Position numbers and translations under genes: made by a program | Assembly (NCBI RefSeq): GCF_028368995.1 | Contig: NZ_JAQNDL010000001.1 | Span: 3,008,001 to 3,072,000, forward strand | Direction: 5' to 3' | From: Nannocystis bainbridge | Lineage (GTDB): Bacteria; Myxococcota_A; Polyangia; Nannocystales; Nannocystaceae | Length of the DNA: 64,000 bases | In this document: positions 1,902 to 62,265 of the stretch, in pieces | How positions within the stretch are numbered: the stretch's first letter is position 1 | Layout of the letters: each line of letters starts with the position of its first letter | Notes under the pieces: generated by a model | The model's database searches: none | The model's input: the letters and a program-made list of their open reading frames with translations, nothing else | What the model was told of the DNA's origin: nothing

Positions 1902-2696
1902 ATGTCCGTCCGTATCGAGCGCAGCGGCCCCGTCACCACCGTCATCCTCGCCCGGCCCGAGCGGCGCAACGCGGTCGACGGGCCGACCGCCGCCGCGCTC
2001 GAGCGGGCCTTCCGTGAGTTCGACGCCGACCCCGACGCCCGCGTCGCCGTGCTGTGGGGCGAGGGCGGGCATTTCTGCGGCGGCGCCGACCTCAAGGCCC
2101 TGGCCAGCGGCGACGCCAGCAACCAGCTCCACCTCGACGCCCCGGCCGACGCGCTCGGCCGGCCGGCGCCGATGGGTCCCACGCGGCTGCTGCTGCGCAA
2201 GCCGGTGATCGCCGCCGTCAGCGGCTACGCGGTCGCGGGCGGCCTCGAGCTGGCGCTGTGGTGCGACCTGCGGGTCGCCGACGAGGACGCCGTGTTCGGC
2301 GTGTTCTGCCGCCGCTTCGGCGTGCCGCTGATCGACGGCGGCACCGTGCGTCTGCCCCGGCTCGTCGGCATGGGCCGCGCGCTCGACCTCATCCTCACCG
2401 GTCGCCCGGTCGCCGCCGCCGAGGCCCTGGCCATCGGCCTCGTCAATCGCCTCGTCCCGCCCGGCCAGGCCCGCGCCGCCGCCGAGGCCCTGGCCGCCGA
2501 GATCGCCGCCTTCCCGCAGGCGTGCCTGCAGGCCGACCGCCGCTCCGCACATGTCCAGTGGGACATGTCCCTCGAGCAAGCCCTGCTCGCCGAGGCCCAC
2601 GGCGGCGCCGACGTGATCGCCCGCGAATCGATCGCCGGGGCCCAGCGCTTCGCCGCCGGCGAAGGCCGCCACGGCACGGGCTCGACGACAAAATAA
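1902..2696 (+). CDS. Enoyl-CoA hydratase/isomerase (crotonase family)
   Basis: FCGGADL, KPVIAAVSGYAVAGGLELALWCDLR. Confidence 0.93.
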   Translation: MSVRIERSGPVTTVILARPERRNAVDGPTAAALERAFREFDADPDARVAVLWGEGGHFCGGADLKALASGDASNQLHLDAPADALGRPAPMGPTRLLLRKPVIAAVSGYAVAGGLELALWCDLRVADEDAVFGVFCRRFGVPLIDGGTVRLPRLVGMGRALDLILTGRPVAAAEALAIGLVNRLVPPGQARAAAEALAAEIAAFPQACLQADRRSAHVQWDMSLEQALLAEAHGGADVIARESIAGAQRFAAGEGRHGTGSTTK

Positions 2697-2977
2697 CCGG
2701 CCGAAGTCGCGACCGCAGCGCTCGCCTCCCGCAGGCTCCCGTCTCTGCGCCGGACCCGAAGATCATCGCCCACGATCGCGGCTCTTCGCCGGCGTGCTCC
2801 CTGCCTCCTGGCCCCGAGATCACGACCTCGCCGCCTGGCTCGCCTGACTCCGGCCTGCGCCTCGCGTCCTCCGACCTCGCTGCTGCCGAGCCCGCTCTGC
2901 TCACCGAACCGGGTTCTCCCGCCACGATGCCCGCGCCGTTGCCCGCGACGCGCGATCGCCCCTATAGTCGCGCCCGC

Positions 2978-3514
2978 ATGCAACGCCGCGAATTCGTCCT
3001 CGGGTCCCCTGCCGTCCTCGCCACCACCGCCTGCAGCAGCGCGCCCGACGAGCTGCCGCCGCCCCCGGCCAAGACGCCCGGCAAGCCCACCGCCCCGCCG
3101 GCGGCCCCGACCGCCGCGCCCACCGCGGTCGCCGACCCGCACGCCGGCCACGGCGACCACGGCGACCACGCTGGCCATCACGCTGGCGACGACGCCACCC
3201 TCACCGTCGCCACCGACTGCCTCAAGACCGGCGAGGTCTGCGTCCAGCACTGCTTCGTCCTGCTCGGCCAGGGCGACACCAGCATGGCCGCCTGCGCCCG
3301 CTCGGCCCACGAGATGCTCGCTGTCACCCGCGCCCTGCTCGTGCTCGCGGCCGGCCCCTCCGAGCACCTGCCCGCCCAGGCCAAGGTCGCCCTCGCCGTC
3401 GGCGAGCGCTGCGAGGCCGAGTGCCGCAAGCACGAGGCCAAGCACCCCGCCTGTAAGGCCTGCGCCGAGGCCTGCAAGGCCGCCGTCACCCGCTACCGCA
3501 CCCTCGCCGGTTGA
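2978..3514 (+). CDS. Csp1-like four-helix-bundle copper storage protein, Tat lipoprotein
   Basis: MQRREFVL twin-arginine signal, lipobox-like TTAC, His-rich linker, Cys-lined helices (CLKTGEVCVQHC; CEAECRKH...CKACAEACK). Confidence 0.8.
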   Translation: MQRREFVLGSPAVLATTACSSAPDELPPPPAKTPGKPTAPPAAPTAAPTAVADPHAGHGDHGDHAGHHAGDDATLTVATDCLKTGEVCVQHCFVLLGQGDTSMAACARSAHEMLAVTRALLVLAAGPSEHLPAQAKVALAVGERCEAECRKHEAKHPACKACAEACKAAVTRYRTLAG

Positions 3515-3546
3515 GCCCGCGGCCGCGGCCGCGATACATTGCGAGC

Positions 3547-60402: not shown

Positions 60403-60450
60403 CCCGCCGCTCGCGGTGTGCTCGACTTCTCCTTACCCCTGGAATTCAGC

Positions 60451-62172
60451 ATGCGACTCCCCTCCCAAGCCCCCCTCGCCGCGGTCCTCGTCCCGCTCCT
60501 GCTGACCGGTTGCCCCGGCCTCCTGGGCAACGCGACCGGCGGCACCGACGGCGACACCTCGACCTCGACGACCACCGGCCCGGCGCCGACCACGATCCCC
60601 GACCTCACCACCACCGGCTTCATGCTCGAGTGCTACCCGGGCACCCTGCGCTGCGACCCGAAGAACAAGGGCGTGGTCCAGGAGTGCAAGGACACCGGCC
60701 TGGCGTGGGAGTCGACCCCCTGCACCGACGTCGAGGACTGCATCGAGGACGTCAGCGCCGGCACCGCCGAGTGCACCGGCCCGTGCGAGCGCATCGACAA
60801 CCCGACCTCGGTCGGCTGCGAGTTCCTCGCCATCCGCATGAACAGCTTCAACTTCGAGGACGATGCCAAGGATGTTCTGATCGTCGGCAACACCGACACG
60901 ACGCGCACGGCCCAGATCCAGCTGTGGTTCACGCCCAACAACAGCTTCACCGAGGAGCCGCTGTTCGAGCCGGTGCTGCTCGGGCCCGGCGAGTCGCACA
61001 TCTTCGACGTCGTCAACGACACGCTGAAGGGCTACACCGCGTTCCGCACCGGCGGCGTGTTCCGCGTCGAGAGCGACGTGCCGGTCACCGCCTACCTGCA
61101 CTCGGCGCTCGCCAACACCGCCAGCAACGACTCGTCGATGCTGCTGCCGACGCCGACCCTGGCCAAGGACTACGTCATCGCCTCGTACCCCGGCTTCGCC
61201 GACCCGGTGAAGCCCGACGAGATCAACGGCCGGCCGAGCTACTTCAACGTCATCGCCGTCGAGGACAACACCACCGTCCAGTGGGTCGCCCCGCGCGACA
61301 CCGCCGCCCAGGGCGTCCTCATCCCCGCGGTCCCGGCCGGCGAGACGGGCACGATCACGCTCAACCGCTTCGACGTGCTGCAGGTCGGCGCGTCGTCGGC
61401 CACCAACATGGAGATGATCACCCACGACCTGTCGGGCACGGTCGTCAGCGCCGACAAGAAGATCTGGGTGATGGGCGCGACCGAGTGCGCGTTCGTGCCG
61501 TTCACCGTCGGCTACTGCAACCACCTGCAGGAGCAGATGATCCCGCTCGAGTACTGGGGCAAGAAGTACGTCGGCCCCCACTCGCCGTCGCGGGCGATGG
61601 AGAAGCACTACTGGCGGATCTACGCCGGCAAGGACGGCGTCACCGTCACCGTCGAGTCCAACGACCAGAGCTTCAAGGTGCAGCCGATCACGCTGGTCAA
61701 GCGCGGCGACTGGAAGGAGATCGAGGTCCCGCACAACGTCAGCCTGATCTTCACCGCGACCGGGCCGATCCTGCCGGTGCAGTACCTGACGGGCGGCAAG
61801 GCGGCCAACAACATCGGCGACCCCGCGATGTACCAGATGATCGCCGTCGAGCAGTGGCTGACCCGCTACGCGGTCGTCACCGGCATCGGCTACGAGCTCA
61901 ACTACGCCCAGGTGATCCGCAAGAAGGGCGCCGCCGACGTCTCGATCAACGGCCAGACCGTCACCGGCTGGTACCTCATCAACGGCACCGGCGCGGACAA
62001 CCAGTGGGAGGTCGCCGACTACCAGCTGGCCGACGGCGCCGAGGCCCGCAGCTACGTCGCCGAGTCGACCGACCCCTTCAACATCGTCGTCCTCGGCTAC
62101 CAGCCCGGCATCCCCAGCTCGGCCTACGCCTACCCCGGCGGCATGAACCTCAAGAAGATCTACGCCCCGTGA
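60451..62172 (+). CDS. IgGFc-binding-domain lipoprotein
   Basis: LTGC, SVGCEF, DSSMLLP, CNHLQEQMIP, GDPAM, AYAYPGG. Confidence 0.88.
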   Translation: MRLPSQAPLAAVLVPLLLTGCPGLLGNATGGTDGDTSTSTTTGPAPTTIPDLTTTGFMLECYPGTLRCDPKNKGVVQECKDTGLAWESTPCTDVEDCIEDVSAGTAECTGPCERIDNPTSVGCEFLAIRMNSFNFEDDAKDVLIVGNTDTTRTAQIQLWFTPNNSFTEEPLFEPVLLGPGESHIFDVVNDTLKGYTAFRTGGVFRVESDVPVTAYLHSALANTASNDSSMLLPTPTLAKDYVIASYPGFADPVKPDEINGRPSYFNVIAVEDNTTVQWVAPRDTAAQGVLIPAVPAGETGTITLNRFDVLQVGASSATNMEMITHDLSGTVVSADKKIWVMGATECAFVPFTVGYCNHLQEQMIPLEYWGKKYVGPHSPSRAMEKHYWRIYAGKDGVTVTVESNDQSFKVQPITLVKRGDWKEIEVPHNVSLIFTATGPILPVQYLTGGKAANNIGDPAMYQMIAVEQWLTRYAVVTGIGYELNYAQVIRKKGAADVSINGQTVTGWYLINGTGADNQWEVADYQLADGAEARSYVAESTDPFNIVVLGYQPGIPSSAYAYPGGMNLKKIYAP

Positions 62173-62265
62173 CCGCGAGGCGCGGCGATCCTGCCGCGCT
62201 CGCCTGCTGTCCCTTTGCACCTGGTCTTCGGGCCAGGTCCTGCTTATCATGATTGGATTGCATCG

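Follow-up and report, generated by a model that had tools for sequence, protein, structure and literature searches.

We have analyzed a 64,000-nucleotide stretch of the Nannocystis bainbridge genome (the window; assembly GCF_028368995.1, contig NZ_JAQNDL010000001.1, positions 3,008,001 to 3,072,000, or C1:3008001-3072000 in our contig numbering), in which short palindromic units recur in arrays with a 14-bp step. This array element is real and under selection. Judged by its sequence features, it is very probably a two-fold symmetric operator of the LuxR/GtaR type, recognized by a dimeric protein in double-stranded DNA. A fuller explanation, in which boxes of this type are bound by a candidate PAS-LuxR protein and form a roadblock at gene ends, is proposed here as possible, at somewhat less than an even chance. 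The assembly consists of 11.05 Mb in five contigs with 71.5% GC, and gene positions are taken from our own gene calls (8,466 genes, 85% coding). The window's own genome is referred to as G000; other G numbers denote relatives in the Nannocystaceae.

A 14-bp lattice of overlapping boxes

A first-pass annotation had marked 20 places in the window where degenerate decamers centered on CATG, CCTG or CAGG recur at 14-bp spacing. All 20 hold decamer-like words in this phase; several of the entries given as two copies contain one unit only, and an entry at 28351 given as four copies is a single unit followed by a pair 28 bp on. With a matrix of the 14-bp unit, 61 loci were identified in the window, 22 of which hold at least two units. 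Three arrays that had been overlooked lie at 5001 (three units), 9866 (four) and 10916 (three), all inside called genes (our coordinates are those of the 14-bp cores, and each box reaches 3 bp further on either side). An autocorrelation of CATG positions, which the annotation had proposed as a check, gave 28, 15 and 9 pairs at 14, 28 and 42 bp in the window, where 200 codon/doublet shuffles gave means of 0.28, 0.24 and 2.29 and maxima of 3, 2 and 7. Across the genome there were 3,736, 2,073, 1,586, 751 and 383 pairs at 14, 28, 42, 56 and 70 bp, over a background of ~60-160 pairs at most distances that are not multiples of 3 and ~250-480 at those that are. Five control 4-mers showed no peak of the 14-bp series in the G000 genome.

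Where a decamer is strong, its neighbor is better conserved in the half that faces it than in the half that points away, and the unit is therefore taken to be TGTCC-N4-GGACA. This palindrome had been noted as a secondary feature; it is the decamer, thought to be the basic unit, that proves to be the by-product. The full site is a 20-bp palindrome, ACM-TGTCY-N4-RGACA-KGT. GtaR, a member of the LuxR family, has the motif RACMTGTCYWWWWRGACAKGTY, derived from 18 of 24 ortholog promoters according to the GtaR/CerM study (PMC11655674). Isolated intergenic units of G000 (n = 1,719) fit this consensus at all arm and flank positions. Their flanks match at 0.61 for R (background 0.50), 0.59 for A (0.14), 0.58 for C (0.36) and 0.93 for M (0.50). 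These four flank positions lay outside the search matrix, and with them the site is a 20-bp box. The element had been called undescribed; the box itself equals the published GtaR consensus, and it is the phased use of thousands of boxes at gene ends that was not found in the literature searched.

Two boxes can overlap at an offset of 14 bp with a loss of 0 bits, as against 2-22 bits at the other offsets from 10 to 19. Boxes thus pack at 14 bp, where their 6-bp ends overlap without loss, and this overlap yields the ACATGT and ACCTGT/ACAGGT variants that make up the decamer. The likeness of the decamer to the p53 half-site, already presumed to be a coincidence, would be a by-product of the same 6-bp overlap. 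The junction variants track the flank profile, yet they are laxer than expected from a simple product model (A 0.61 as against 0.94), and isolated boxes end in ACAGGT more often than in ACATGT (565 and 481). Spacings of 15-20 bp are depleted, with 2-12 pairs where ~30 are expected. Since spacings of 16-20 bp would be cheap in sequence, their depletion suggests steric exclusion or cooperativity. The 4-nt spacers do not vary freely, as had been stated; neighboring spacer bases covary (335 mbit) through AA/TT, GA/TC and CG couplings, and CGAA/TTCG and GAAA are common spacers.

In G000, the unit matrix exceeded 10 bits at 12,074 positions as against 603 in the reversed genome, or ~11,500 above control. 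Loci number 9,910 (6,554 single, 1,669 double, 720 triple and 967 of at least four units). The 967 longer arrays are found in convergent gaps (464), tandem gaps (307), divergent gaps (23) and inside genes (173). Long arrays begin at or just past a stop codon: in convergent gaps with at least 60 bp of free space, 61% of arrays lie within 10 bp of a stop, where 22% are expected (n = 249). Depending on the contig, 51-74% of convergent gene pairs carry a unit and 32-55% carry an array of at least three. The observation that the longest arrays lie between convergent genes was borne out in the window by all six arrays of at least five units. A 35-kb cluster of ribosomal-protein genes and rpoBC contains 17 single units and no multi-unit array, with ~10.6 such arrays expected. 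The sizes of gene-end arrays in G000 show a dip at four units and a rise at five to six, a pattern that is absent in a 400-kb sample of G001.

The proposal that arrays are binding tracks is supported for a sequence-specific protein acting on double-stranded DNA. Arm-pair mutual information is at most 7 mbit, showing no arm-to-arm covariation, and units oriented by the upstream gene are nearly strand-symmetric, with TTCG and CGAA spacers 96 and 88 times on the sense strand. In 294 kb aligned between G000 and G001, the G/C at unit position 2 is identical at 0.95 of fourfold-degenerate sites (background 0.81) and at 0.94 between genes (background 0.83). Long-array spacers have an identity of no more than 0.52-0.54 and so have diverged roughly three times as far as fourfold sites, a contrast that may be inflated by synonymous-site constraint and by a bias towards alignable gaps. 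In four congeners, the arrays at 51845-51914 and 55555-55624 are found at the same position and with much the same length, though their spacers differ; the 62208 array was seen in three of the four, and the 48298 array is not reliably alignable. The arrays were not copied from each other, as best-partner spacer identity is 0.657 (null 0.645) and 61 18-mers are shared (null 48.5 +/- 9). No signal of a MITE family, long hairpins, mirror pairing or gene conversion was detected among arrays, nor any of slippage, which the annotation had already discounted.

Distribution of the box and its candidate reader

Strict units number 167-3,312 in 23 of the 73 family genomes examined, which belong to three genera, and 2-37 in the remaining 50 (controls 0-27). 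In a sample of 400 genomes of the phylum, there were 0-3 matches each to an 18-bp pattern. An RpoB tree that included 11 of the motif-rich genomes groups them in one clade with a support of 0.988. A small ancestral regulon in motif-poor genomes was considered and not seen (0-4 boxes). A scan of species representatives returned mostly Nannocystaceae and also Rhodobacteraceae (80 of at least 95 stretches listed). Among the matches listed, the Rhodobacteraceae sites are intergenic and have a tandem 14-bp unit, A/T spacers and ACC...GGT flanks, and some span the start of a LuxR-type gene; three Rhodobacteraceae genomes hold 1-8 strict sites each. In a viral scan, no array-rich locus occurred among the matches listed (80 of at least 119 stretches).

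The nearest described system is that of GtaR and CerM (PMC11655674), which has the same consensus and, in the Rhodobacteraceae sites just described, 14-bp tandems as well. The study shows that CerM binds a related motif and reports that occupancy of a second CerM site depends on the presence of the first. The two systems differ in scale and placement: GtaR/CerM sites are few per genome and lie on the promoter side, whereas those of Nannocystis number in the thousands, lie at gene ends and have a less AT-rich spacer. No account of the array element was found in the literature searched, outside of which lay subscription journals and supplements. By its sequence, the element works like an operator of the LuxR family and does not belong with quorum-sensing regulons, REP-RAYT or matS.

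As for the protein that reads the box, the evidence slightly favors a clade-specific protein with a PAS-like domain and a LuxR-type helix-turn-helix (HTH). Its gene lies outside the window, at C3:1036254-1036793 on the minus strand, and is one of 11 GerE matches in G000. The protein has ~150-190 aa, in which a small PAS-like domain is joined to the HTH (Pfam GerE, E = 2.6e-11). It is common to G011 and G013 and has no counterpart among 14 loci from G019 and G024 (30 of 50 matches covered). A near-full-length ortholog (E <= 2.5e-38) is present in 22 of the 23 motif-rich genomes and in none of the 50 motif-poor ones, where the best matches reach E 1.2e-14 and 6.3e-13. Around 46 metagenomic orthologs, 277 kb of sequence contain 29 sites (control 0), and 183 kb from 48 loci of motif-poor genomes contain none. 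The HTH is 89-95% identical between genera, as compared with 86% for RpoB and 64-82% for other LuxR-type HTHs, whereas the N-terminal part is only 30-40% identical between genera and has no Pfam match. We interpret this as the HTH being constrained by a large number of targets.

In the predicted structure of the candidate, a small domain of the alpha/beta type accompanies an HTH of four helices, and the fold is closest to EL222 and VqmA; EL222/VqmA-type and NarL/FixJ-type HTHs are also its nearest sequences. Known PAS-LuxR proteins are local regulators, and from EL222 and VqmA the candidate is set apart by its short, fast-evolving PAS-like domain. A near-identical public homolog is WP_224195102.1. 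A homodimer prediction scored 0.39 against a mark of 0.42. In seven genomes of genus g1, a gene pair resembling type II topoisomerase A/B (C3:1031624-1036022 in G000), labeled by eye from N-terminal sequence, runs convergently with the candidate gene.

Several points weigh against this candidate. Its recognition helix, SFSTVRTYVRQ, differs from that of GtaR (SESALKARLNS), and a profile of the GtaR helix does not place the candidate in its top 45. Distant relatives whose helix is similar occur in motif-poor G017 and G021, and in G006 (84% complete), with 685 sites, no ortholog was found. No conserved box was seen in the candidate's own promoter, and the gene is single-copy in genus g1. Moreover, because the motif-rich genomes form one clade, the match between gene and motif counts as one event. 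Orthology with GtaR/CerM is not indicated, given the different helix, the lack of an autoinducer-binding domain in the candidate and the lack of a promoter bias. Three other readers were considered and rejected. LexA is encoded by one gene without a unit upstream. AHL-binding LuxR proteins are unsuitable, as PF03472 was found in 2 of 41 genomes, in weak matches within long sensor open reading frames, and is absent from the candidate. PadR had no match in G000, G001 or five more motif-rich genomes, despite the PadR/LmrR/LadR box ATGT-N8-ACAT having the same core spacing (PMC4517056).

Possible roles of arrays behind genes

A protein roadblock to transcription is the leading candidate function for the arrays, because searches for Rho were negative and few U-tract terminators occur. 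The rho model exceeded its cut-off in none of five genomes (G000, G001, G011, G013 and G019), as against 8 of 14 controls; G000, G001 (one contig) and G011 gave no match, and G013 and G019 gave weak sub-threshold ones. Rho motifs were absent from the six frames of G000, in which Mfd, NusA and F1-beta motifs were found. By a simple test in G000, hairpins followed by a U-tract are confined to 0.6-4% of gaps, whatever the class of gap. For a high-GC myxobacterium, these findings are unusual. In the mechanism proposed here, single boxes would be weak and rows of three to eight boxes would be bound cooperatively, so that a protein block acting in either direction would form immediately downstream of stop codons. 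This block would stall RNA polymerase, Mfd would then remove the stalled enzyme, and stalling would limit read-through and collisions of convergent genes where Rho was not found. In Escherichia coli, Mfd removes RNA polymerase paused at a roadblock, as PMC4132739 describes for LacI; the proposed working is alike. The known bacterial cases are single loci. No chromosome-wide gene-end roadblock system of bacteria was found in the literature searched. Among eukaryotes, Reb1, TTF1 and MTERF are roadblock terminators. Considered by itself, an Mfd-cleared protein block at gene ends is a possible function of the arrays, though we would place it just below an even chance.

A larger claim, and a somewhat unlikely one, is that one clade of myxobacteria recruited a LuxR-type regulator to act at gene ends across the whole chromosome, with its lattices serving as bidirectional, Mfd-resolved terminators. 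If it were true, the operator would have multiplied from several hundred strict copies, as in genera g2 and g4, to thousands, and bacteria would have a third route of termination, coded in DNA and protein, without Rho and with few U-tract terminators. Canonical intrinsic terminators were reported for only 22% of the transcription units of a cyanobacterium (PMC12642595). For the question of how transcription ends in Rho-less bacteria, the present case would contribute an explicit signal behind genes, a candidate reader and cultured species.

Other observations speak against termination as the function. Motif-poor G019 is also without Rho, so Rho loss alone did not call for arrays. Called genes contain 5,632 of the 9,910 loci and 173 of the 967 long arrays. 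The ends of rRNA operons have no array, and tRNAs show no association (15 of 103 downstream and 15 of 103 upstream). An array of at least three units is found in 82 of 1,416 tandem pairs with less than 20 bp of residual gap. Perfect sites in low-copy relatives, which make up a subset of the sites there, are rarely convergent (2 of 24 in G011 and 2 of 18 in G013); 17 of the 24 in G011 lie in tandem gaps and 10 of the 18 in G013 lie in genes, and convergent arrays therefore look derived. Finally, 20 of the 31 arrays of at least eight units are on contig C3, where 5.6 are expected. This contig holds a skew switch, the likely mark of the terminus. The longest examples include a 21-unit array at C3:1237890-1238183 and a 12-unit array at C3:1487036-1487203, the latter 16 kb from the skew switch.

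The genic loci, the lack of arrays at rRNA and tRNA ends, their occurrence in very short tandem gaps and the enrichment of the longest ones on C3 favor an architectural role, which is unlikely in our estimate. The same boxes, probably with the same LuxR-type reader, would coat, bend or insulate DNA or recruit topoisomerase at convergent supercoils; gene ends would be used as the freest space, with extra weight on the terminus region. The ~11,500 strong units are spread over all contigs at one per kb, thousands of boxes are conserved inside genes, and the dinucleotide coupling of spacers suggests shape read-out and bending. The topoisomerase A/B-like neighbor of the candidate gene fits as well, but it is absent in G002, G008, G009, G011 and G013. 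In addition, the hugging of stop codons exceeds the free-space expectation and the ribosomal-protein cluster is avoided, and overall unit density on C3 is only 1.99/kb as compared with 1.33-1.66/kb on the other contigs. Were the role architectural, an ordinary regulator fold would have turned into a nucleoid protein with ~10,000 specific sites, and low-copy relatives would keep earlier stages of the process.

The matS-MatP system, SlmA/Noc sites and HIP1 are chromosome-scale palindromic signals, and an analogy to matS or SlmA sites had been drawn for the window arrays. It fails in that sites occur on all five contigs, without regional confinement of the matS type, and it retains some force in that the longest arrays are enriched on the contig of the likely terminus. 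Phased arrays, graded degeneracy and a LuxR-type geometry further distinguish the present element from all three signals.

A different reader was also weighed, namely stand-alone Fis-like (HTH_8) proteins of 66-82 aa acting as a nucleoid protein of the Fis type, which we hold to be improbable. Each of the 23 motif-rich genomes carries 3-14 members of the family, as against a single member in most motif-poor genomes (45 of 50; range 0-3). It surfaced from a codon-bias ranking for abundant proteins that drifted to AT-rich genes, and it is the largest paralog family of small proteins in G000 (9 of 1,684). The Fis-like helix LGITRHALKRR shares A-L-K-x-R with GtaR, eight paralogs rank 2-28 of 8,466 proteins on a GtaR-only profile, and predicted models appear to fold like Fis, with weak E-values. 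An identical helix is, however, found in the single-copy orthologs of motif-poor genomes, which hold 0-4 boxes, and G466 has three copies and yet three sites. Fis-like genes have no array upstream, and the promoter of the ancestral gene shows another box. Fis/NtrC-type dimers usually read half-sites that are spaced wider. The PAS-LuxR candidate and the Fis-like family could act together. Some Fis-like members (the family is represented by, e.g., G000 C2:2991539-2991757) have two fused domains (P0001-P0003). The ancestral gene is preceded by a conserved box and seems to be leaderless. The family tree is poorly resolved (60 columns).

A role in RNA is very improbable; arrays would fold into stem-loops at 3' ends, where they would shield the transcript or make polymerase pause in the manner of REP/BIME elements, spread by a transposase or by gene conversion. 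REP/BIME elements are likewise abundant palindromes behind genes that favor convergent gaps, and the position at 3' ends, the common CGAA/TTCG and GAAA spacers and a lean of one junction pair to G-U on the sense strand (299 as against 198, over a background that is itself T-skewed) would suit such a role. Five-unit arrays (58% GC) fold at -32.9 kcal/mol, doublet shuffles at -19.3 and re-dealt or permuted arrays at -30.2 to -31.8. Real arrays are thus 1-2.5 kcal/mol more stable than re-dealt ones, and this excess is the strongest argument left for a role in RNA and weighs against an operator read purely as DNA. It is alike on both strands (sense -32.9, antisense -32.6 kcal/mol), and the arms show no compensatory changes, TTCG and CGAA spacers are nearly balanced, and the flanks are conserved outside the hairpin arms. 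The hairpin system offered in the annotation as an alternative is not supported: there were no Y1_Tnp/RAYT matches in G000 (90% complete), and spacer identity and shared 18-mers are near null. REP/BIME elements also differ in lacking the strict 14-bp lattice and the conserved genic copies.

A signal of the HIP1 or uptake type, produced by a biased process such as methylation-directed repair or DNA uptake without a standing protein coat, is least probable of all; the very high copy number, the genic copies, CATG at junctions and the fast spacer divergence, a hint of local mutation or repair, are outweighed by a degeneracy that is graded and matrix-like over 20 bp, unlike a methylase target, by the surplus of ACAGGT over ACATGT ends, and by strict phasing and stop-codon hugging, which it leaves unexplained.

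Loci of the window and further observations

The window loci are given here without strand, in order of size. An eight-unit array with weak ends (24431-24542) fills the convergent gap between 23134-24447(+) and 24547-25308(-). Three five-unit arrays begin on a TGA stop: 7324-7393, on that of 5413-7326(+), which is convergent with 7399-8334(-); 51845-51914, on that of 50063-51847(+), filling the gap to the convergent 51912-54185(-); and 55555-55624, on that of 55195-55557(+), which is convergent with an OmpA-family gene. A single box at 55892 lies near the last of these. There are two further five-unit arrays. One, at 12387-12456, covers the stop of the Ser/Thr kinase-AAA gene 8698-12408(+) and continues past it; this gene faces the ECF sigma gene 12905-13525(-) convergently. 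The other, at 35144-35213, is in the convergent gap behind 33423-35123(+). The kinase-AAA gene also contains arrays of four (9866-9921), three (10916-10957) and two units (11850-11877), and a single box (12874-12887) lies behind the ECF sigma gene. A three-unit array at 48298-48339 is found 140 bp behind the kinase gene 45165-48155(+), followed by single boxes at 48603 and 48776; inside this gene, three two-unit arrays begin at 46490, 47222 and 47748 (46490-47775 overall). Matrix matches account for another three-unit array (5001-5042, inside a called gene) and for two-unit arrays at 2552-2579, inside the enoyl-CoA hydratase gene 1902-2696, and at 5281-5308, in a divergent gap.

Among the remaining two-unit arrays, 25491-25518 lies behind 25538-26719(-), and 26998-27025, together with a single box at 27069-27082 (26998-27082 overall), lies behind 27090-28370(-), a gene that contains another at 27525-27552. 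A single box and a two-unit array in one 14-bp phase (28356-28411) are placed at the stop of 28409-29293(-). Gene 51912-54185(-) contains a two-unit array (53901-53928), and one with a CCTG junction (62208-62235) separates two tandem IgGFc-domain genes. Single boxes include one with ACC/GGT flanks found by the matrix (13609-13622) and a strong one in a divergent gap (41504-41517).

Outside of Nannocystis, GtaR-type boxes, often in a 14-bp tandem, precede an XRE-family gene, an RNase E-like gene and a DEAD-box helicase gene in Rhodobacteraceae and one unassigned alphaproteobacterium. These genes are possible GtaR/CerM targets that have gone unreported. Matches in Mesorhizobium were set aside as a different repeat of perfect long hairpins; it is a perfect inverted repeat of ~40 bp with the center GGACATGTCC, lies in frame within several genes and looks like a separate REP-like element. 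G011 contains a repeated tyrosine-integrase element inserted in GGCGAT (Gly-Asp) repeats of lipoprotein genes, and another locus (L023) resembles an empty site. This element, which occurs near box sites of G011, was rejected as unrelated to them. In the window, three tandem tRNA-Cys(GCA) genes (49230-49513) each have a matrix match (49280, 49385 and 49492), probably by chance. The window also encodes three IgGFc-binding-domain proteins, at 41612-43594, 60418-62172 and 62266-63981, two of them in tandem.

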